From Hormiphora californensis (lineage: Eukaryota; Animalia; Ctenophora), in NCBI GenBank assembly GCA_020137815.1, contig CM035350.1:3782001-3846000 (forward strand): a stretch of DNA of 64,000 nucleotides, in the 5' to 3' direction. Position numbers and translations under genes: made by a program. Of the stretch, positions 6,466 through 56,993 are shown piece after piece (the first letter of the stretch is position 1; the number at the start of each line of letters is the position of its first letter). Below the pieces are notes generated by a model that ran no database searches, was not told where the DNA came from, and saw only the letters and a program-made list of their open reading frames with translations.

Positions 6466-7006
6466 ATAAGGAACCATAATAAAGTTCAAGAGCGCACCCC
6501 ATCCAAGAGCGCACCACCTCCAAAAGACACCACTTCAAGAGCGCACCACATCAAAGAGAGCTCCCCATCCAGAAGATACCGCGCGCAGGGGACACCACGC
6601 GCAGAAGAGACCGCACGCGCAAATACAACGCCGCGCTGGTCTCTTCTGCGCGTGGTGTCCCCTGCGCGTGGTATCTTCTGGATGGGGAGCTCTCTTTGAT
6701 GTGGTGCGCTCTTGAAGTGGTGTCTTCTGGAGGTGGTGCGCTCTTGGATGTGGTCTCTTTTGGGTGTGGTACGCTCTCAGGTGTGGTCTCTCTTCGATCG
6801 GGTGTGCTCTTGGGTGCTCTTGGAGGCTCTTGAACTTTAAAGTCGGATTTTTTGAAGTTGTCACCCCAAAATGACCGCGCATGTGAAATTTATGAATTTA
6901 AACGCGCACACGACACGTTAACATGTGATGTGACGCGCAAAAACATTCCGCGCACGAAGAGGGGGGTGACAACTTCAAAAAATCCGACTTTATTATGGTT
7001 CCTTAT
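6466..7006. mobile_element. TIR element (ATAAGGAACCATAATAAAG) carrying two tandem palindromic cassettes
   Basis: TIR at 6466 and inverted TIR ending 7006. Palindrome A at ~6481-6838 (AAAGTTCAAGAGC...GCTCTTGAACTTT); palindrome B at ~6839-6991 (AAAGTCGGATTTTTTGAAG...CTTCAAAAAATCCGACTTT). Confidence 0.8.
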
Positions 7007-7572
7007 GCGACTTATAAACATAAATTTTGTGAAAAATGGAAAAAAAGATGAAAGTTTCCTGATCACGAGAAAAAAATCATCTGCGCGCACACACAATTTT
7101 CTGGGTGAACCGGACACCCTGGGGTAAGTCGGAAGAACCTGTCCGTTCCTCTCATGAGCGCTCATGAGTGTATCATGAGTGTGTCATGAGTGTATCATGA
7201 GTGTATCATGAGCGCTCATGAGACGTTTTTAGGTGTTTCAACGTCTCATGAGCGCTCATGAGTGTATCATGAGTGTGTCATGAGTGTATCATGAGCGCTC
7301 ATGAGTGCTCATGAGACCTTGCTCATGAGCGCTCATGAGACATATGTCTCATCCCATCTCTGTTTCAATGTCTCATGAGCGCTCATGAGACGTTTTGACC
7401 TACATGTGCTCATGAGTGTATCATGAGACATGTCTCATGAGACATATGCCTCATGAGACGTTAGGGTTATGGTTATGGTTGGGTTTAGGGTTGGGCTAGG
7501 GTTAGGACTTTCCTTTAGGTCTAGGGACCCGTAGAGGGTAGGGCTAGGTCCAAGCCTATGAGTCAACCCTAA

Positions 7573-7615
7573 AGTTTCAAACTTTTCAACACTACTTTAA
7601 ACAAATTAATTTGAG
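7573..7615 (+). other. Spliced-leader (SL)-like exon sequence forming the 5' end of the LINE
   Basis: AGTTTCAAACTTTTCAACACTACTTTAAACAAATTAATTTGAG closely resembles, from recall, ctenophore (Pleurobrachia-type) SL sequences ending ...AATTTGAG. It is followed by CC, not a GT donor, so it is not an SL RNA gene. Confidence 0.75.
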
Positions 7616-7626
7616 CCTATGTAACT

Positions 7627-9087
7627 ATGGCTATGTCCATGTCTACCGGAAATCTCAAGGAAAATGACATTATCCTAGGGGAACTACTAAACCTAGCCGT
7701 CAACAATCCCAACGCTTTGAAAGTTCTCAACGCGTATGATCTTGAGGGCTCGTTTGAGGGTAACTTGGATACCTTGCGGAAACTCCCGGAGAAAGCCCTT
7801 GTCGCGGCATGCGCCCTACTCGGGTTGAAGCCCTTGATTGATGGAAGGAAGCGATATGGTTCCCGGACAACACTGGCAGAGTGGGTTATCATGAACATAT
7901 CCGTTTTGTTTGTGTATGACTGCGGCTCCTGTGGTAAGGAATATCAAGTTGATAGACTATCCGAACCAAAGATGAGATGCAGAGTGTGTGGACAAGGCAG
8001 CCACGACTGCGATCCTTTCTTGGAGGCATACGAAGCACTGGAGAAACTAAACGTGGAGGTGCCAGGGCTTTCTTGGTTATGCCATCCCTGTGCTCGTAAA
8101 AATCGTCTCGAGGCTTTCCCAGGTTACACTTACGGGGAATCAGACGATAAGGCGGCTGCAGATGGAGAGAGTTCGGACACTGAATTTCAGGACAAGATCA
8201 GTCCGGTCCAAGAGAAGAAAGGAAAACGTGGAAGAAAGAAGAAAGCCCCGATCGATGAGGAAGCGATCACGCCGGTAATTGGAGGTGACAACCAGCCAAA
8301 TCGCCGGGATCTGACACTCAAACTAGAGGGGAAGGATTCTGCTCCTGATGGAGATGGGGAGAAAACGAGCGAGGAAAAGGGCGATAAGAAGCCAGGAAAA
8401 TCCAGCTCTAAGTTTGAAAATGTGTGTGAAGCGTACAAGAAGAAAGCTTGCCCTCACGGGAGAAAGGGTGATAAACTTGTAAATGGGGTCGCCTGTTCGA
8501 AGAATCACCCAGTTTCTTGTACCAGATACGTATCACAGGGAACCATCAAGAGAGGGGGTTGCTCCAAGGGCAAAGACTGCAAATATTTCCACCCCCCAAT
8601 TTGCAGGAACTCGGAGATCAAGAGACAGTGTCTTGACCCTGATTGTGATAGGATCCATTTGAAAAGCACTCGCAGGAAACCTACCCCACCTGTAGTTACT
8701 GATCTGGATAAGGGGAATGCCGGAACATCCAGTAACAGCAAAACCCAGAAGAAGGCCGAACCCAAACCGAAACCCAACAAGAACGGCAACAACACGAAAA
8801 CGGGTCTGGTAGACCAGGATTTTCTATTGACTACCATGGGTACCCTTCGGGATGGGATGATGGAAGAGATGCTGGGGGTAATGAAGAAACTACTCAGGGA
8901 GGAAATGGCAGAGATCCGTTCGGTCCTCAGCCCACCTGGGGAATTGGAACGATTCCGACATCGCAGCTCCCCGGCACTGACGGTAAAGGGAACACCCGCG
9001 GGCTCCACGCCGATGAGCAGAAACGTGTCGTACGGGGACATAATAAAACGGTCTCAAAACTGGTTTTGCTCAACGCCAGGAGTCTAA
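7627..9087 (+). CDS. LINE ORF1 (486 aa): PHD-like finger plus three CCCH-type zinc fingers
   Basis: CGSC...CRVCGQGSHDC...WLCHPC is PHD-like; C..C..C..H clusters lie in CEAYKKKAC...H, CTRY...C...CKYFH and CRNS...C...CDRIH. PHD domains are known in CR1 ORF1. Confidence 0.88.
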   Translation: MAMSMSTGNLKENDIILGELLNLAVNNPNALKVLNAYDLEGSFEGNLDTLRKLPEKALVAACALLGLKPLIDGRKRYGSRTTLAEWVIMNISVLFVYDCGSCGKEYQVDRLSEPKMRCRVCGQGSHDCDPFLEAYEALEKLNVEVPGLSWLCHPCARKNRLEAFPGYTYGESDDKAAADGESSDTEFQDKISPVQEKKGKRGRKKKAPIDEEAITPVIGGDNQPNRRDLTLKLEGKDSAPDGDGEKTSEEKGDKKPGKSSSKFENVCEAYKKKACPHGRKGDKLVNGVACSKNHPVSCTRYVSQGTIKRGGCSKGKDCKYFHPPICRNSEIKRQCLDPDCDRIHLKSTRRKPTPPVVTDLDKGNAGTSSNSKTQKKAEPKPKPNKNGNNTKTGLVDQDFLLTTMGTLRDGMMEEMLGVMKKLLREEMAEIRSVLSPPGELERFRHRSSPALTVKGTPAGSTPMSRNVSYGDIIKRSQNWFCSTPGV

Positions 9088-12023
9088 CTCCCGCTGCCAC
9101 GAGTGACTGTCGATGGAAACTCTCCTATTTGACTGATATGGTGAGCAACTCCTCTGTTCCCGTTTTGGCAGCAGCCGTAACGGAGACTTGGTGGAAAGAG
9201 GAGTTTACTGAGGCCCAGGTAGAAATACCTGGTTTTTCAGTAGTTAGGAGTGATAGGAAGTCCCGTAAGGGAGGTGGATGTGCACTGTACGTGAACCAGA
9301 GAGTGACACCCACAGATGAATATATTTGGAGTGACAGTTGGTCCAACATTGCTGCAGCCTACGTTGCAGAATCACATATGGTGCTGGCATCTGTCTATCG
9401 GGCCCCAGGTTCCCAAATGTCTTCGATCCTTCACCGGCTACAAACCTTCATCGAAAAACACTCATCTGACCAGGTTTTTCCCGACGTTTACATTCTGGGG
9501 GATTTCAACTGCCCGGGTATTAACTGGTCAACACATTTTTCCTTAGACTCAAGGGAGTCGGAGCTTTTGGAGTTTGGGGATAAATACTTTCTATATCAAA
9601 TGGTGCACGAACCTACTAGAGGGGAGAATACTTTGGATATCATACTCACTAACAGGGAGGAGTATTGTGCTTCAGTTGGGGTGGAGGACCTTAACATCTC
9701 TGACCATTCAGTTGTCCAGTGTGTGCTGGGATTTGGGCTTGAGCCGGTCAGGGGGAGGCCAGCGAGGAATATGCAGGGCTTCGCTGGACTTGATATCCAT
9801 TCTGCTGACTTCGAGGCAGTCAATGCCGAACTACAAGGTGTAGACTGGGACGGTGTCCTGGATGGCTACTGTAGAGACGGAGACGGGTCGGACATTGTAC
9901 AGCGAATCTCAGAGGTGATTTTGCAGATCGTATCTCGGTATGCCAAGGTCAAGAGACGTGGTATTGCGAGGAAAGACCCAATGCTGAAACGGCTAAAGAA
10001 GAAGCAGAAAAAGTTAAACCGGGAAATCTCCAAGGCAAAGAATGCCAACTCATATGCTGGGCATATTGCAAAGTTGGAGAGGCGAGTTGCGAGAGTGGCC
10101 CTGGAAATCAGGTACTATCTTAACAGGCGAATGGACCAGGAGGAACAGCGTGCTGTGGAGATTATTAGGAGCAACCCTAAATTTTTCTGGACTTACACAA
10201 ATGACAGGAGGAAAACAAAGTCACGTATTCCTCCTTTGAAAAGGGCGGATGGGACTCTGGCAGAGGATCCTGGGGAAAAGGCTGAATTACTACAGGAACA
10301 GTATTTATCAGTCTTCAGTGATCCCGAACAAGTCGTGGTGGAAGATGCAGTAGGGAGTATATCCTTTGCAGGACCAACTTTATCTGACATCGAATTCACT
10401 CCATCTTCTATCGAGGCAGCTCTCAAGCTGCTCGATCCCTTCTCTGCTGGCCCACCGGGGGATATACCATCATGCATACTCCACCGGTGCCGATCAGCTT
10501 TGTCGTACCCTCTGTTTTTGCTGTGGAGGGATTCCTTTAATCGGGGTGTTGTCCCTAGCTGTCTTAAGCGACAATTCATCACTCCAATTTTCAAGAAGGG
10601 TTCCCGATCCGAGGTTGGCAACTACAGGCCTGTATCGCTGACGTCAAATATCATCAAATGCTTTGAGAGAGTGGTACGTGCAGGGCTCATTACCCACTTC
10701 GAGACGTGTGGTATCTTGAATGAGTCGCAACATGGTTTTAGGAGAAACCGTAGCTGTTTGACCCAGCTTATAGAACATCTCGACCGGGTTTTGCGTGCAG
10801 TAAGTGATGGTGATGAGGTCGATGTGATCTATCTAGACTATCAAAAGGCGTTTGACAAGGTCGATCACAGGGTCTTAGTGTCCAAATTGGAGAAATATGG
10901 TGTGTCAGGAAAACTGCTGGAGTGGATCAAGAACTTTTTACAGGATCGTGTTCAGACTGTTACTGTTGACCAGGTTTTCTCGAGCTTCAAGGAGGTTTTA
11001 AGCGGTGTCCCGCAGGGGAGTGTCCTGGGGCCCGTACTTTTCTTGGTCTATGTCATTGACCTTGAATCATCCCTGAGTTTTTCGGATGCTTTGACTTTTG
11101 CCGATGATACGAAGATCATTAAAGTTATCAGAGGAATCCTAGATCATGCAAATCTACAGGAGGATCTGTGTAACGTGGTGGATTGGTCGGTGTTAAACAA
11201 CATGACACTCCACGACGATAAGTTTGAGCTGGTGCGTTATTCACCACGCTCCAACAACTTAATGCGGGAGCTTCCTTTTACAGCGGGCTATCTCTCTTAT
11301 GAGACCCCTAGTGGAGTATGTTTGACATCTTCTCCGGTTGTAAAGGATCTTGGTGTTCTCCTGTCAGAGGATGGGTCGTGGAAGCCACAGATCGAAAAGG
11401 TATCTGCATCGGCATCAAGGGTTGCAAACTGGATTCTGGGGGCGTTCAAATGCAGATCAGTTAAGGTAATGATGACTCTTTACAAAACACTTGTTCGCCC
11501 AATCCTGGAATATTGTTCTGCAGTCTGGAACCCGTCATCGGTTGGTGAAATTGCCCAACTGGAGCAGGTGCAGCGAAATTTCACCAGGCGTATCCTAGGG
11601 TGTCAAAACTTGGACTACTGGGAGAGACTTGCTTTCCTTGATTTACAGTCCCTGCAGAGGCGCAGGGAGCGCTATGTCCTTATCCACATGTTCAAAATCT
11701 GTAAGGGACTAGCCCCAAACGGACCCGGTTTTGATTTCAAGGACACCCCTCGTTACGGGGCACGGGCAGTGATCCCAAAATTCAATCATGGGGCACAAAG
11801 GTCGGCGTCCACTATGTTTGAAAACTCTTTTTCGGTTCTTGGGGCGAAACTATGGAACACTCTTCCTAAATGTGTCAAGGACGCCGGGAATATCGATGAA
11901 CTCAAGGTTGTACTGGGAGGGTACCTCAGGGGCATTGCTGATAGACCACCAACCAGGGGGTACTCGTGTGTTCATGGAAACTCCTTGTTGGACTATGCCC
12001 TGAGCCGGGGCACGGACTTCTAG
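9066..12023 (+). CDS. LINE ORF2: APE endonuclease plus reverse transcriptase (frame open from 8736; listed start is TTG)
   Basis: APE motifs NARSL, VTETW, GGG.ALY, YRAP, GDFN, LD, SDH; RT motifs NYRPVSLTS, QHGFR, DYQKAFD, GVPQGSVLGP, FADD; CR1-type C-terminus LEYCSAVWNP. Confidence 0.95.
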   Translation: MLNARSLTPAATSDCRWKLSYLTDMVSNSSVPVLAAAVTETWWKEEFTEAQVEIPGFSVVRSDRKSRKGGGCALYVNQRVTPTDEYIWSDSWSNIAAAYVAESHMVLASVYRAPGSQMSSILHRLQTFIEKHSSDQVFPDVYILGDFNCPGINWSTHFSLDSRESELLEFGDKYFLYQMVHEPTRGENTLDIILTNREEYCASVGVEDLNISDHSVVQCVLGFGLEPVRGRPARNMQGFAGLDIHSADFEAVNAELQGVDWDGVLDGYCRDGDGSDIVQRISEVILQIVSRYAKVKRRGIARKDPMLKRLKKKQKKLNREISKAKNANSYAGHIAKLERRVARVALEIRYYLNRRMDQEEQRAVEIIRSNPKFFWTYTNDRRKTKSRIPPLKRADGTLAEDPGEKAELLQEQYLSVFSDPEQVVVEDAVGSISFAGPTLSDIEFTPSSIEAALKLLDPFSAGPPGDIPSCILHRCRSALSYPLFLLWRDSFNRGVVPSCLKRQFITPIFKKGSRSEVGNYRPVSLTSNIIKCFERVVRAGLITHFETCGILNESQHGFRRNRSCLTQLIEHLDRVLRAVSDGDEVDVIYLDYQKAFDKVDHRVLVSKLEKYGVSGKLLEWIKNFLQDRVQTVTVDQVFSSFKEVLSGVPQGSVLGPVLFLVYVIDLESSLSFSDALTFADDTKIIKVIRGILDHANLQEDLCNVVDWSVLNNMTLHDDKFELVRYSPRSNNLMRELPFTAGYLSYETPSGVCLTSSPVVKDLGVLLSEDGSWKPQIEKVSASASRVANWILGAFKCRSVKVMMTLYKTLVRPILEYCSAVWNPSSVGEIAQLEQVQRNFTRRILGCQNLDYWERLAFLDLQSLQRRRERYVLIHMFKICKGLAPNGPGFDFKDTPRYGARAVIPKFNHGAQRSASTMFENSFSVLGAKLWNTLPKCVKDAGNIDELKVVLGGYLRGIADRPPTRGYSCVHGNSLLDYALSRGTDF

Positions 12024-12439
12024 TTGCAAAGCCGAATGAGTTCAGAGAGGCTGAAGCGTTTATTTATAATGTGGATGTCTCGACATGACTGGTCAAACTA
12101 TTTTGAAGATTTGAAGATTTAACCTTATCCCTACGGGTCCCTAGACCTAAAGGATAACCCTAACCCTAGCCCAACCGTAAACCCAACCCTAACCCTAACC
12201 CTAACGTCTCATGAGACATATGTCTCATGAGACATGTCTCATGATACACTCATGAGCACATGTAGGTCAAAACGTCTCATGAGCGCTCATGAGACATTGA
12301 AACAGAGATGGGATGAGACATATGTCTCATGAGCGCTCATGAGCAAGGTCTCATGAGCACTCATGAGCGCTCATGATACACTCATGACACACTCATGATA
12401 CACTCATGAGCGCTCATGAGACGTTGAAACACCTAAAAA

Positions 12440-12506
12440 CTGTCAGGCCAATGCTCTGACCACAGTTCTCGCGCGCTCCGATAGGGTCAGGCCAATGCTC
12501 TGACAG
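12440..12506 (+). mobile_element. 67-bp mini-element (family M2) inserted in the right arm of the foldback
   Basis: CTGTCAGGCC...CTCTGACAG with 8-bp TSD CCTAAAAA (12432-12439, 12507-12514); absent from the left arm. Confidence 0.85.
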
Positions 12507-12817
12507 CCTAAAAACGTCTCATGAGCGCTCATGATACACTCATGATACACTCATGACACACTCATGATACACTCATGAGCGCTCATGAGAGGAACGGACA
12601 GGTTCTTCCGACTTACCCACCCTGGTCACGTCAAAATGCACTGTGGCGCGCGGAAGAACCCTCTTTATGCTCTGCCGTGCGTTACAGGTGCGCGCAGTGA
12701 ACCTGGGTGTCCGGCAGAGCTCCGGACACCCGGCTGCGCACAAATCCAAAATTTCGCAGTTTTCACTTGGCATGCGCTGCAGACCCCAAGTGCGCGCGTT
12801 TTCCACGGCTTCTAGGG

Positions 12818-33088: not shown

Positions 33089-33419
33089 TGTCAATATGAT
33101 GTTGGGAAGGTGTTTGGAATGGGAAGGTGGACGAATGGAAACACGGTAGATAACGGGTGGTTAACAAAATAGACGGATCAGGTAGTACAACGTTAAGGTA
33201 GTTCGATATTGGGAATCTGACAAAGTGCTTGTCAACTTAAAACTCACTCATCTTCACAAAAAGCACGTGCGCGCACTTGAAAGGTGCATTTCAAGTGCGT
33301 GCACAAAAGTGTCACATACTAATGATCAGTTCGCGCGTTACGTCCGGTAGGCGGTAACAACTGCGACAGTGTGTCCCACAGAACAATACACTCAATCTCA
33401 TGACACACAGCTCATGACA
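33089..33419 (-). repeat. 3' LTR of the copia element
   Basis: Direct repeat of 38055-38385; contains the internal hairpin GTGCGCGCACTTGAAA...TTTCAAGTGCGTGCAC. Confidence 0.95.
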
Positions 33420-33439
33420 CTCCCCTCTATTTCTTTCTC
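33420..33439 (-). other. Polypurine tract
   Basis: Minus strand GAGAAAGAAATAGAGGGGAG directly abuts the 3' LTR. Confidence 0.9.
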
Positions 33440-33708
33440 AAAAGGACTTACCGAACTCGAGACCGATGAGGCAATGAACGCCGAGAGGGTTCCAAACCGT
33501 GTCAAGGCTAAAACTGTCATTTGTCAATTGTCGTAACAATACAAGTGAGAGTTAACTGGGAAAAACTAACAATGTGAAAATACTGAGATACGAAAAGGTA
33601 CATGTTGTCTTTGTCTGGAAGAAAAATAGAAAACAAAGTCAGTTGTCCGATAAAATATTTCAACTGGAGAAATAAAGTTAAAAAAATACAAGTAGGTTGG
33701 AAAACACA

Positions 33709-36700
33709 CTAGATCATCCTCTCGATCACTCTGGGACTCACTCCTCGCTTTGTGAGTACATCAGCGGGGTTAGACTTCGACTCCACCCAGTTGATGGATG
33801 CTTCTCCCTTTTCGACCTTCTCTTGAACTTCACGTAGCTCCAAGATGCTTCCCTTATCGGTTGGTACAGCTGAGACGGAGTTTGCCAAACTCACAACTTG
33901 TGCGGAGTCTGTGTAAAGTCTGATGGGAGGGTCAAAAGATAGTTCCTGGAGGAGGGCTTTGATCATAACTCCATATCCCAATCCTTCAGATACAGCATAC
34001 AATTCTGCGGCAAAGACGCTCTTCACTACACGTTTTACCTTGCCACACGAGTAGGCGATCAAATTGAAATCAGAGCTGTCTCCCCAGAAAACTACAACTC
34101 CTGCTCCGCTCTTTCTGTCAGCTAGGTTGCCGAGACTGGCATCAGTGTAAACAATTATCTCAGCTGTGGTAGGGTTAAAAGGGGAAAAGGTTATCGTTGA
34201 AGGAGAAAGGTTGGTCACAATCTTCTTCAGTTCTTTGAACTCTTTGCCGGTCCAGGGTGATTTCGTCGTAATGTCAAGGAGACTGAAACTGATCTGTGGC
34301 ATACTTTGGGTAGCCAGCCAGTTCAACTTTCCGATCACCGTTCTCATATAGGATTGAAGATTCTCATCAACCTCTTCTTGATTCTGTGGTACCGGTTTAA
34401 CAGCTTTCATCTTGTCCAGGATATCCTCTCTCACAAACTTACAATACTGTTCCTGGGTTACACAAATGTCAATTCCTTGCTGTTTCAACTGCCATCCCAG
34501 GTAGTTGAATTCAGTTGTTTCAACTCTTCCTATCTTGTAGTTGTCAAGAGCGGGTTTAACTTTCTTGTAGAAGTTGTGATCACCAGTAATAAGAATATCA
34601 TCCACATGAATTACTAGTAATCCTTGTAGTTTCCCGTCATCTCCAGTGGTGAAAAATACATTCTTGTCAATTCTTGACATCTGGAGAGTGTTTTTCAAAG
34701 TTGCGGTGAGTGACATGTACCATCTTCTTCCCGCGTCACCAAGACCGTACAGTGGTTTATTTAGTTTCCACAGTACATCCTTCCTCTTGAGGTAAGCTGG
34801 GGGTTTGATGAACACATCTCTTGTCATCTTATCTGACTGCAGGTAGGCACTGGTTACATCAACACTTTTCAGGGTCCAGTTACTGGTAGTTGCCAAACTT
34901 AGCAAGATCCTCACTGCGTGTTTAGTAACAGTCGGTGAGTTAGTCGGGTCCTCGAGTTTTTCCTCAAATCCTCGGGCCACCAGCCTGGCTTTCACTGTGC
35001 CATCATCTTTCCGTGTCATCACCCATCTGGTGGTGACTGGTTGTTGTCCTGTATCGGGTACTTCCTCGAAAACATTGAATTCACGGAGTTTGTCAATCTC
35101 CCTATTTCGTGCTGTCTGCACTTCTTCCTTGCCCAGTTTAGATGCGGCAAGAAGAATGATCTCCTCAGCATCAGAATCGGGATCTGAGTCCTCTGTGTCT
35201 TGATCTGGGGTGTTTGCTGCGTCCTCTGTGGGCTCTGCAACATCCTCTTTTGGCGTTAACGTGTCCTCATTGGAGTCAGTCTTTTCCTCATTGGGTCTGG
35301 CGCTGTCCTCTGTGGGATCTGGCTCTATGTCTCTCTGACCAGGTGTATCCTCAGTATCCGGGCTGGTTTCACTTTCAGGAACTCTCACAACAACAGGTCC
35401 ACTTGTTGTGGCCTCATCCTCCTGCTGGTCCTCGGTTGGGACGGCTATCTCTGCATAAGTAGGTTCTCTGGGAACTTCTTCAATGTTACTCTCACTGTGT
35501 CCATCTTGTGGAGTGTCCTCTTCGGGATCTGTTTCACTAGGGATGAGTAATTCATCTGCAGGATGCTCTGGTGGGGGGATTTGTCGTCTGTTGTGCCGGA
35601 GATTGTATTTTCTGGTCGGTTCACGGACTGTCTTCTTTGGACGTCTGACTCTGCTAGCCTTCGGTGGCTGCAATTTAGATTTCTCTATCGGTTCCGGGAC
35701 ATCTTCATCAGTCGTCACTTCCGGTGCAGTCTGCATCTCGGGGACGTGTCTCTTGGAACTTGATTCCTCGTTTCGTTTGTACTCCTCTTTCCGTTGTTGG
35801 TCCTCTGGGGGTTCTTGTCTTTGTTGTACCAGTCTCACTTTGCATGGGTGTGCTCTTAGTAGTTGTCCGCCGTGTTTAATCAGTACTTGGTTCTCAGTCA
35901 TTCCAACTACAGTTGCAGGTCCCAACCAGGTCTTGTGTTGCTCACGTTTATAATACACCTTATCTCCCTGGACGTAGGTGGTCTGATCCTGTGTTGGTCC
36001 TGAACTTGCTAGAGCTCTCTTTAATCTGCTTGCATTCTCGAGTTGGATGAATTTCTCCCTGGCGGTCTTCATGGCTTTGATATTGTCTGAAATCACTTGG
36101 TCCTCACTCTTCTGGTCTCCATGGGCAGGTAAACAATCATCGTTCAGTACACTGGGGAAGGTAGGATTGCTCCCAAACACGAGTTGGTGTGGTGAGAATC
36201 CCATCTGGTTAGTCAACTGGTTCTTCGCATTGGAAGCCCAAGCACAAGCTACAGTTATACTGCACTTCGTGTCATCTTTGGTCTTCTCAACCATCTTTCC
36301 AAGAATACTGTTATGTCTCTCACAGATCCCATTGCACCAAGGACTTTCTGCTGGAGTAGACTTTAATTCGATTCCAAGTCTGCTCGCCATCTCAAGTAGG
36401 GTATCATTGATGAACTCGCCACCGTTGTCGCTGAGAATTCTCTGTGGACGTCCAAAAATGCTAATCCAGCTTGTGAAGAACTTCTGGGTGATCTCAGTTC
36501 CAGTTTTTGATTTCACGGGGACCATTACACTGTATCTGGTCAGTGTGTCAATGATGTGTAGTACCCAGCATGATTCTCCAGACTTGAACTTCAGCATCTT
36601 GAGATCCATAGCGAGACATTCGTTGAATGTTTTGCTGAGAGGTAAAGCTACTTTCCTCCGTGGTTTGGATGCACTGTGTTCGAGACAGTTTTCACATTCT

Positions 36701-38028
36701 TGTGTGACCCTGGTGAGTTCTTGACAAATCTCAGACTTTCGAGGGTGATCCGAGGATTTAACAATATCCTGGATCTTGGAGACTGAACCATGAGCAAAGT
36801 ACTTGTGGAGTTTCTTGGCAATTGCTGGAGGAGAGATCCCTGAACAAGAATTTGTTAACAAAGTAGTGGGTGAAAGCTTCTTATTAAGGTCAATTGTCAC
36901 ATGTCCAGTGTCAGTAAGATGTAATGTAGTTGTCTTACCCGAGACACGGAGTTGATCCCTCTCAAAGTCAATCACTGCACCCATCTGACTCAATAAGTGC
37001 CTGGATAGGAGAAGGGGAATGTTAATATCAAGAACATATACCGCAAACTCAGTAAACTTCACACCGAAAATATCAGTTGGGATATAAGCAATCATAGTAG
37101 AGTTAACTCCTGATAAATCACCAAATGTAAATCTTCTCTGTTCACATGATTCTCTTCTCACTCGAATACACGACTCTTTCTCAAAATTCTTTAACCAATC
37201 ACTGCCACACACACTCTTAGCGGCGCCAGTATCAAGCAACGCACGAAGTCCCACTTGCTCGGATAAAGACAAGACATAGTCCGTTTCAACGCTCATCTTG
37301 TACACTCCTGTGGCATCGCCACTCTGACCTCGTCGACCCCCAGATCCACGCTGACCACGTCCTCCACCACGTTTTCCCCGTACGGCACCACGCCGATTGT
37401 AACACTCAGAGGCAATGTGACCAGTCTTCTTACAATTGTAACAGACAACCAGAGTCATTGTTTCAGAGGTTTGATCGGTTTCAGCAGCTGAGGGTAGGGT
37501 CTCCCCATACGCCCTCTTCATCTGTGTGATCATGCATTCCAGACTGATTTCAACACAGGTAGCTCTGAGGAGTCGTTTCTGTTCATCGGAGATGTTAGAT
37601 TGTTCCAAAAGTCTGTAGGCTAACACTTGTGATCCATAGAGTTTGTGATGGTCATCGACTCCAGCCTGCTGTCGGAGCTCCCCAAGTCGGGTGGAAAACT
37701 CTGATATAAAATCTGACATGTTCTGATTAGCTGGTCTGATAAAGTTCTCAAAAGCTTCAATGGCGGAAAAGAGTGAAACAGTTTTGTCTCTGCCGAACAC
37801 TTTCTCGATGGCATCGAGGAGGATTTTAACACCGTTCTCGGACTTGAGCTGCTCGGTGGGTACGCCTAGGGCTACTTCCTTTGCACGTCCCTTCATTTGG
37901 AGAGCTAACCGGGCCGCCTGTTTCTCCTTGGGGCAGCCAGTACCTAACAGCCAGATGTCGACCTCACGGCGATAAGTCTCAAAGTTCGTTTTGTTATCAA
38001 AGACCGGGGCATGAATGTCGGATGGCAT
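33709..38028 (-). CDS. Copia gag-pol polyprotein (~1439 aa)
   Basis: CCHC knuckle CYNCKKTGHIASEC, protease LLDTGA, integrase HHCC plus D..D(SDNGGEF)..E(NGICERHN), RT KARLVARGF and HVDD, RNase H YTDAS...NPADVLTK. First ATG after the PBS is at 38028. Confidence 0.95.
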   Translation of the reverse strand: MPSDIHAPVFDNKTNFETYRREVDIWLLGTGCPKEKQAARLALQMKGRAKEVALGVPTEQLKSENGVKILLDAIEKVFGRDKTVSLFSAIEAFENFIRPANQNMSDFISEFSTRLGELRQQAGVDDHHKLYGSQVLAYRLLEQSNISDEQKRLLRATCVEISLECMITQMKRAYGETLPSAAETDQTSETMTLVVCYNCKKTGHIASECYNRRGAVRGKRGGGRGQRGSGGRRGQSGDATGVYKMSVETDYVLSLSEQVGLRALLDTGAAKSVCGSDWLKNFEKESCIRVRRESCEQRRFTFGDLSGVNSTMIAYIPTDIFGVKFTEFAVYVLDINIPLLLSRHLLSQMGAVIDFERDQLRVSGKTTTLHLTDTGHVTIDLNKKLSPTTLLTNSCSGISPPAIAKKLHKYFAHGSVSKIQDIVKSSDHPRKSEICQELTRVTQECENCLEHSASKPRRKVALPLSKTFNECLAMDLKMLKFKSGESCWVLHIIDTLTRYSVMVPVKSKTGTEITQKFFTSWISIFGRPQRILSDNGGEFINDTLLEMASRLGIELKSTPAESPWCNGICERHNSILGKMVEKTKDDTKCSITVACAWASNAKNQLTNQMGFSPHQLVFGSNPTFPSVLNDDCLPAHGDQKSEDQVISDNIKAMKTAREKFIQLENASRLKRALASSGPTQDQTTYVQGDKVYYKREQHKTWLGPATVVGMTENQVLIKHGGQLLRAHPCKVRLVQQRQEPPEDQQRKEEYKRNEESSSKRHVPEMQTAPEVTTDEDVPEPIEKSKLQPPKASRVRRPKKTVREPTRKYNLRHNRRQIPPPEHPADELLIPSETDPEEDTPQDGHSESNIEEVPREPTYAEIAVPTEDQQEDEATTSGPVVVRVPESETSPDTEDTPGQRDIEPDPTEDSARPNEEKTDSNEDTLTPKEDVAEPTEDAANTPDQDTEDSDPDSDAEEIILLAASKLGKEEVQTARNREIDKLREFNVFEEVPDTGQQPVTTRWVMTRKDDGTVKARLVARGFEEKLEDPTNSPTVTKHAVRILLSLATTSNWTLKSVDVTSAYLQSDKMTRDVFIKPPAYLKRKDVLWKLNKPLYGLGDAGRRWYMSLTATLKNTLQMSRIDKNVFFTTGDDGKLQGLLVIHVDDILITGDHNFYKKVKPALDNYKIGRVETTEFNYLGWQLKQQGIDICVTQEQYCKFVREDILDKMKAVKPVPQNQEEVDENLQSYMRTVIGKLNWLATQSMPQISFSLLDITTKSPWTGKEFKELKKIVTNLSPSTITFSPFNPTTAEIIVYTDASLGNLADRKSGAGVVVFWGDSSDFNLIAYSCGKVKRVVKSVFAAELYAVSEGLGYGVMIKALLQELSFDPPIRLYTDSAQVVSLANSVSAVPTDKGSILELREVQEKVEKGEASINWVESKSNPADVLTKRGVSPRVIERMI

Positions 38029-38044
38029 AATGTCGTCAGCTTCA

Positions 38045-38053
38045 CTGCTACCA
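38045..38053 (-). other. Primer-binding site (tRNA-iMet-like)
   Basis: Minus strand TGGTAGCAG 1 nt after the 5' LTR, complementary to the ...CTGCTACCA 3' end of animal tRNA-iMet; typical of GalEa elements. Confidence 0.85.
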
Positions 38054-38054
38054 C

Positions 38055-38385
38055 TGTCAATATGATGTTGGGAAGGTGTTTGGAATGGGAAGGTGGACGA
38101 ATGGAAACACGGTAGATAACGGGTGGTTAACAAAATAGACGGATCAGGTAGTACAACGTTAAGGTAGTTCGATATTGGGAATCTGACAAAGTGCTTGTCA
38201 ACTTAAAACTCACTCATCTTCACAAAAAGCACGTGCGCGCACTTGAAAGGTGCATTTCAAGTGCGTGCACAAAAGTGTCACATACTAATGATCAGTTCGC
38301 GCGTTACGTCCGGTAGGCGGTAACAACTGCGACAGTGTGTCCCACAGAACAATACACTCAATCTCATGACACACAGCTCATGACA
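38055..38385 (-). repeat. 5' LTR of the copia element
   Basis: Direct repeat of 33089-33419. Confidence 0.95.
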
Positions 38386-39738: not shown

Positions 39739-44130
<4,392 letters not shown>

Positions 44131-46105: not shown

Positions 46106-46176
46106 CTGTCAGAGCATTGGCCTGACCCATTCTCGTTTCTCTCAAGAGAACTGTGGTCAGAGCATTGGCCTGACAG
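46106..46176 (-). mobile_element. Mini-element family M2 copy
   Basis: Reverse orientation of 12440-12506; TSD GACCACCA/GGCCACCA (7/8). Confidence 0.8.
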
Positions 46177-56605: not shown

Positions 56606-56993
56606 ATAAGGAACCATAATAAAGTTCAAGAGCCTCCAAGAGCACCCAAGAGCGCACCCGATCGAAGAGAGACCACACCTGAGAGCGCACCACACCCAAA
56701 AGAGACCACACCCAAGAGCGCACCACCTCCAGAAGACACCACTTCAAGAGCGCACCACATCAAAGAGAGCTCCCCATCCAGAAGATACCACGCGCAGGGG
56801 ACACCACGCGCAGAAGAGACCAGCGCGGCGTTGTATTTGCGCGTGCGGTCTCTTCTGCGCGTGGTGTCCCCTGCGCGCGGTATCTTCTGGATGGGGAGCT
56901 CTCTTTGATGTGGTGCGCTCTCGGAGTGGTGTCTTTTGGAGGTGGTGCGCTCTTGGATGGGGTACGCTCTTGAACTTTATTATGGTTCCTTAT
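56606..56993. mobile_element. TIR element (ATAAGGAACCATAATAAAG) with one palindromic cassette (A)
   Basis: Same TIR and cassette A as 6466-6838, in opposite orientation. Confidence 0.85.

Follow-up and report, generated by a model that had tools for sequence, protein, structure and literature searches.

Intact ctenophore LINEs headed by a complete host spliced leader, and their likely derivation through host trans-splicing

Non-LTR retrotransposons have to rebuild their 5′ end in every cycle, and they are known to achieve this with internal promoters, ribozymes, terminal repeats or host co-transcription. The 64,000-nt stretch of Hormiphora californensis DNA analysed here (the window) holds a LINE that begins with the sequence of a host spliced leader (SL), and the question raised by this locus is how an element of this kind comes by its 5′ end and keeps it. 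Our main reading, to which we assign a probability of roughly 0.6, is that an intact CR1-like LINE carries the host leader as its first 43 bases, that at least two distant ctenophore LINE lineages do alike, and that they came to do so via a leader-capped template renewed by host trans-splicing.

We compared the 43-mer at 7573-7615 (plus strand) with the published leader consensus of H. californensis and found that it equals nucleotides 2-44 at 43 of 43 positions, according to the accessible part of PMC8527503. This comparison had been fixed beforehand as the one that could overturn the identification of the motif as a ctenophore SL in the earlier note, and the match is complete to the first base; the additional G with which the consensus starts possibly derives from copying of the cap into cDNA. 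The exon of an SL RNA gene on a metagenome contig (L087) consists of the same 43 letters, and there GTAAGC stands behind it. A chance match was rejected: the motif's 3′ 25 nt occur once in the window and were matched, with three mismatches or fewer, in none of 100 shuffles. An SL RNA gene was rejected as well. The base behind the window 43-mer is C, in agreement with the remark of the earlier note that no GT donor follows; CCTATG stands there in place of a donor and intron part, and the window leader has no SL-RNA-like structure (fold z +1.38 vs. −3.55 for L087). The order in the window is therefore simple to describe: foldback DNA up to AACCCTAA (ending at 7572), the 43-mer, 11 nt and the ORF1 start codon at 7627, so that the 54 nt counted earlier between foldback and start codon are confirmed by the coordinates (7573-7626). 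Those 11 nt equal the median distance from leader to first ATG in 109 mRNA-like metagenome contigs among the matches listed. No ribozyme-like fold was detected at the LINE's 5′ end by the fold test, and no ribozyme by an Rfam search of 6900-12800; sub-threshold miRNA-type Rfam matches on the palindromic arms in that interval were taken as chance. An 8-mer, AGCCTATG, is present twice here, once in the foldback 20 nt ahead of the insertion (7553-7560) and once across the leader junction (7614-7621), possibly by chance.

By its reading frames the element is an intact APE-RT LINE and appears to be a CR1-like copy (Table 1). Pfam recognised RVT_1 (E 4.8e-23) and Exo_endo_phos_2 (E 1.5e-10) in ORF2, the catalytic motifs GDFN, SDH and FADD were found, and the relatives of this frame include a Mnemiopsis protein. 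ORF1 shares 86% identity with a protein of Pleurobrachia bachei, and by this match and the leader the window is ctenophore DNA, probably of the Pleurobrachiidae. ORF1 has no Pfam match above the cut-off, only sub-threshold zinc-finger matches, and its putative PHD-like and CCCH-like labels are a reading of Cys/His spacing. The C-terminal motif of ORF2 is one that we take to be CR1-like, and a PHD-containing ORF1 is common in the CR1 lineage, though not diagnostic of it. What was found fits an APE-type LINE of the Jockey superfamily: APE and RT in ORF2, a 3′ tandem tail, a target duplication and an empty site. When the CR1 and L2 lineages of this superfamily are used for comparison (accessible part of PMC4120745), the window LINE shares with them the two ORFs, APE and RT in ORF2, a putatively PHD-like ORF1, a short tandem 3′ tail and a tiny target duplication, and differs from them in a 5′ end that consists of a host spliced leader and 11-52 nt of its own UTR.

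Table 1. Features of the LINE and its insertion site in the window.
Feature	Position	Strand	Basis or remark
Foldback, left arm and centre (insertion target)	7122..7572	.	TAACCC-like repeats near centre
Target-site duplication, left, TAA (2-3 nt)	7570..7572	+	Loose end of empty site behind 7572 compared with both junctions
Ctenophore spliced-leader exon, complete	7573..7615	+	Consensus match; identity with L087 exon; unique in window
Residual 5′ UTR, 11 nt	7616..7626	+	41 nt less than the X1/X6 form, which arrives here via ...GATATAG
ORF1, 486 aa	7627..9087	+	Cys-rich, putatively PHD-like N-terminal part; putative CCCH-like fingers
ORF2, APE and RT, open	9045..12023	+	Frame open from 8736; first ATG 9138; overlaps end of ORF1
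3′ UTR	12024..12119	+	Ends in tandem tail at 12102-12119: two copies of TTTGAAGA and TT
Target-site duplication, right, TAA (T may be the tail's)	12120..12122	+	Junction comparison with empty site
Foldback, right arm	12123..12618	.	Inverted-arm match

The LINE sits inside a host foldback whose inverted arms pair 7122-7233 with 12507-12618 (100%) and 7225-7534 with 12131-12440 (98%). To see this site and the LINE's 5′ end in other material, we compared the window with contigs of the DNA runs X1 and X6 (two samples of organism A) and X11 (organism B), and of the RNA run X20, four of the 22 runs listed; contig depths were not taken as copy numbers. Empty foldbacks are present in the contigs of X1 and X6, where opposite-strand joints connect 7534/7538 to 7572, and they run on past AACCCTAA without a leader. 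A 43-mer already residing in empty foldbacks had been named in advance as a refutation, and the empty copies of X1 and X6 do not bear it out. The proposal that this copy was reverse-transcribed from SL-bearing RNA is supported: leader-headed copies of this kind were almost certainly made from leader-bearing RNA that was copied nearly to the cap. NeSL, CRE, SLACS and CZAR also are non-LTR elements adjoining leader sequence, and they carry restriction-like endonucleases with SL RNA genes as their insertion targets. The window LINE, by contrast, has an APE endonuclease, lies in a foldback and has flanks unlike those of the SL gene L087; targeting of the NeSL type was rejected on these grounds, and the difference from NeSL, CRE and SLACS drawn in the earlier note stands.

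The surroundings of the LINE contain further features of their own. TAACCC-like (telomere-type) repeats lie on both sides of it at the foldback centre (7465-7572 and 12120-12170). The right foldback arm is broken by a 67-nt palindromic insertion (12441-12507), related copies of which occur at 46106-46176 and in the mRNA-like contig L062, and a second palindromic repeat of 374 nt is present at 6466-6839 and 56620-56993, its two copies being 98% alike and in opposite orientation. A Copia-type LTR retrotransposon at 33089-38354 (minus strand) looks intact, with a 1439-aa ORF that includes a zinc knuckle, integrase and RVT_2; its two 300-nt LTRs are identical, which indicates a very recent insertion. 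In Pfam searches of 120 of the 145 candidate frames in the window, the host exons recognised were those of a phosphodiesterase at 40.8-43.6 kb; none was near the LINE, and no host gene lay near enough to be named as a source of read-through. These cyclic-nucleotide phosphodiesterase exons (40770-43563, plus strand) have the same strand as the LINE and lie some 29 kb downstream of it.

The contigs of X1 and X6 showed the family's 5′ end to be longer than that of the window copy. Their form consists of the leader, C, 38 other letters, AG and then CCTATG as in the window; it thus exceeds the window copy by 41 nt and places 95 nt before the ORF1 ATG, and the assumption that 54 nt is the family's normal 5′ end had to be given up. 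In X1 a single contig extends without a break from the leader as far as 8300 and shows one difference to the window sequence. Within the additional 41 nt lie a pyrimidine-rich run and, at a distance of 7 nt from each other, two TAGs, the second of which is where the window leader is joined. In X11, which differs from the window at 51 positions in 638 nt, the match starts exactly at the downstream AG, after 30 unmatched letters. The direct junction of leader and CCTATG is absent from the contigs of X1, X6 and X11, and the depth at 7638-7665 in these contigs is explained by the long form alone. This absence does not disprove the window junction, because contigs drop rare variants; assembly typically prunes short low-depth links that adjoin high-depth repeats. 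Coverage of the LINE in the RNA run X20 is confined to 8079-8117, a region that does not include the LINE's 5′ end. In the three DNA runs, the flanks before the leader start are heterogeneous, with loose ends before 7571-7575 and an agreement of 0.41-0.56, values that are pooled over all leader copies. In the X1 and X11 contigs, loose ends behind 7616 and 7618 continue with (C)TGATG-like starts and probably represent further leader-headed repeat families.

The window copy fits a shortened derivative of the family form, with the leader joined at the second TAG either by a second trans-splicing event or by a deletion. Cis-splicing was excluded as the cause of the 41-nt loss, since there is no GT at the start of the missing piece. 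A deletion, a template jump of the reverse transcriptase at the 3-nt microhomology AGC, which is present at both ends of the missing piece, or an assembly error would account for the short UTR of this one copy with no second trans-splicing. Such an origin would agree with the absence of the junction from the contigs of all three DNA runs and with the skipping of the nearer TAG, which has the better pyrimidine run. Its breakpoints would nevertheless have to coincide exactly with the 3′ end of the leader and exactly with a TAG, which is the geometry of trans-splicing, and the pruning of low-depth links weakens the argument from absence. We regard this origin of the window's short UTR as somewhat doubtful; a second trans-splicing event likewise fits that copy. 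Because the UTR was shortened at the second TAG, re-splicing would not always restore an identical end, and the expectation of an identical 5′ end in every cycle has to be relaxed: the window copy is 41 nt shorter than the X1/X6 form.

Two distant lineages include intact, integrated LINEs that begin with the leader, and the sites at which these lie are unrelated. Metagenome contigs were scanned with the last 24 nt of the leader, which gave at least 121 loci, 80 of them examined with long flanks; whether each data set was DNA or RNA was inferred from how its contigs begin. The same pattern had no match in the collections of viral contigs and genome contigs. In most of the listed loci (109 of 121) the contig begins within the leader or with it, preceded by 0-4 other nucleotides; these loci are mRNA-like, with diverse sequences behind the leader. 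The 12 with five or more non-leader nucleotides upstream comprise four LINEs, L081, L071, L085, two SL RNA genes and three mRNA-like loci with odd 5′ letters (L019, L066 and L089), which were dropped as likely chimeras. The two SL RNA genes, L087 and L088, both have GTAAGC after the leader, and lie 778 nt apart on one contig as units of a tandem array. Seven loci are neither genes nor mRNA-like: homology identifies five of them as LINE-derived, L071 is so classed by resemblance, and L085 has no class.

The four LINEs (L028, L039, L042 and L064) have two ORFs, and the RT region of three of them is about 27% identical to that of the window element. Two continue past an (ATT)n tail into flanking sequence; upstream of the leader, L042 and L064 extend by just 6 and 5 nt, respectively. 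We take all four to be L2-like by their motifs, the C-terminal motif of ORF2 in L064 and L042 presumably being of the L2 type, and a quick APE-RT tree, which included no labelled CR1 or L2 reference, set the window group apart from L064, L042 and L039. Other full-length LINEs, here L2-like ones, start with the SL at unrelated flanks as well. L081 contains an ORF with homology to ORF1 of the window element (identity 36% over 76 aa); this locus has at least 282 nt of flank upstream, in a data set in which, by a hand count, 65 of the 66 loci begin within the leader. It is possibly an unspliced read-through RNA, or it may reflect DNA carry-over or a chimera. The sequences of L081 and L085 are known to 300 nt past the leader. 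L071 is presumably an ORF1-like element with a tandem tail, a label for which Pfam gave no support. L071 and L015 are related ORF1-like elements that have the leader at their start and no ORF2; L071 has a genomic-looking flank besides its tandem tail, L015 looks like its RNA counterpart, and both are possible non-autonomous leader-headed retroelements.

All these copies might descend from a few hidden masters that keep their own promoter and outron and whose RNA is trans-spliced like half of the host's mRNAs, the leader-headed copies then being promoter-less dead ends. Capping of element RNA by chance is indeed common, the leader being carried by 56% of Hormiphora Iso-Seq reads and by about 30% of Hydra TE Iso-Seq reads (accessible parts of PMC8527503 and PMC12220107, respectively), and our pattern search could return leader-bearing copies only, so that leader-free full-length copies fall outside it. 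We nevertheless consider hidden masters quite improbable. The X1 contig is unbranched from the leader via the UTR into ORF1, the ORFs of leader-headed copies are intact, and lineages so divergent could hardly last on masters alone if each daughter were promoter-less.

The leader letters that lie outside the search pattern bear on whether the leader is renewed. In the six element loci L028, L039, L042, L064, L071 and L081, these letters agree with the SL gene and show no internal change (106 letters in all); per locus, the match covers 16-19 of 19 nt and reaches to 0-3 nt from the gene start. The UTRs behind these leaders have diverged. Over the first 30 nt, those of L028, L042 and L039 are 90%, 61% and 61% alike in pairs, a likeness reached by 0, 2 and 2 of 200 shuffles, and they are homologous from the leader junction onward; the homology of the L064 UTR to these three is not clear, as 8, 25 and 57 of 200 shuffles reach the observed likeness over 30 nt. 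The upstream flanks of the element loci have nothing significant in common. Unchanged leaders beside diverged UTRs suggest repeated renewal, and together with the second junction at the downstream AG they fit renewal from the host pool. A current leader, a drifted UTR and a kept junction would be expected if the AG of the leader itself served for renewal, but strong selection on a captured leader predicts the same.

Selection of this kind would operate if the leader had been captured once per lineage and were now fixed, with an internal promoter in leader or UTR that starts transcription at the leader's first base and with no new trans-splicing. The leader-UTR junction is conserved in L028, L042 and L039, the 95 nt before the ATG in the family form would be enough for a short internal promoter, and in Ascaris the SL exon itself acts as a promoter element. 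Moreover, the leader's terminal GAG is an unlikely acceptor, GAG being weak in this role in most spliceosomal systems. A fixed leader would, however, require that lineages with 27% identity between their ORF2s captured it separately and that 40-43 nt stayed perfectly conserved next to UTRs that have drifted to about 60%, and it leaves the joining of the window copy at a downstream AG unaccounted for. We judge a fixed leader to be unlikely, and hold that the leader is probably renewed by trans-splicing of transcripts that would start in flanking DNA.

Renewal could proceed as follows. Reverse transcription would reach to within 0-3 nt of the cap, and the integrated copy, having lost any upstream promoter, would be transcribed from flanking DNA. 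The spliceosome would then join a fresh leader at the terminal AG of the old one, by which the 5′ end would be kept, as the junction shared by L028, L042 and L039 would lead one to expect; alternatively, it would join the fresh leader at a TAG further down and shorten the UTR, which would be the case of the window copy. For the L2-like families, re-splicing at the terminal GAG seems plausible, and a promoter-less cycle as a whole appears likely from the sequences compared here. The sequence GGTGTTTTAG is conserved immediately before the G-ATG of ORF1 in L028, L039 and L042. It is likely an acceptor, and its use could produce a translated mRNA with a short leader in addition to a longer RNA that serves as template. 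Tandem relict leaders, anticipated as a sign of repeated cycles, were not evident: inspection by eye of the window and the six element loci revealed no degenerate tandem copies, only the 8-nt GTTTCAAA in the family UTR, which is perhaps there by chance.

Parts of this picture have precedents. Boroni et al. (PMC5832876, accessible part) reported six leader exons fused to TEs in Schistosoma mansoni and suggested trans-spliced, retro-transcribed elements, and PMC12582326 lists, in its accessible part, 597 loci with partial leaders across flatworms. The flatworm loci share with ours genomic leader exons fused to LTR or LINE elements and their attribution to integrated trans-spliced transcripts. 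In the accessible parts of both papers they are mentioned in passing, as loci that were discarded; neither the anatomy of an element nor an empty site is described, families are not compared and no life cycle is proposed, whereas in ctenophores the leader is complete, the element is intact and several families are compared. In dinoflagellates, according to the accessible part of PMC3229502, host genes recycle the leader: capped RNA is reverse-transcribed, reintegrated and re-trans-spliced at an AG of the old leader. The window retrocopy resembles these genes in having a genomic leader at its 5′ end; there, host genes are concerned and tandem degenerate relics accumulate, whereas the ctenophore elements are autonomous LINEs in which no such relics were found by eye. 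Hydra likewise provides animal TE RNAs that use host trans-splicing, but the report, in its accessible part, deals with RNA only and gives no leader-headed genomic copies. The L1Tc/ingi elements of trypanosomes are LINEs in a host with universal trans-splicing, as ours are in a trans-splicing host, and they represent the opposite solution, with an internal promoter, an HDV-like ribozyme and unspliced transcripts. Retroelement copies with a leader from trans-spliced RNA had already been remarked on in passing for flatworms; a search of the openly accessible literature found no paper on leader-headed ctenophore LINEs or on a promoter-less LINE cycle, and the accessible parts of PMC9911081, PMC12460157 and PMC2566580 contain nothing on leader-headed LINEs.

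A leader-headed start appears, on the sequences at hand, to be general to several ctenophore LINE families. The accessible part of PMC8527503 counts 718 genomic leader copies in Hormiphora and 491 in Mnemiopsis, with no assigned origin and no link to LINEs. A wider picture, which we hold at about even odds, is that ctenophore LINEs of at least two lineages gave up promoters and ribozymes and left the setting of their 5′ end to the spliceosome. Any incoming transcript would be re-capped, and the fresh leader would become the first 43 bases of the next insertion; downstream AGs would ratchet the UTR shorter until ORF1 stops the process, of the hundreds of leader copies in ctenophore genomes, many would mark the head of a LINE, and other trans-splicing lineages would have arrived at the same solution. 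Existing ctenophore genomes and Iso-Seq data could test the leader-headed cycle directly. If it is real, the supply of a leader in trans would add, in an animal, another answer to the 5′-end problem of non-LTR elements; it would provide an origin for part of the 718 Hormiphora and 491 Mnemiopsis leader copies, and the leader would serve as a built-in tag for full-length insertions.
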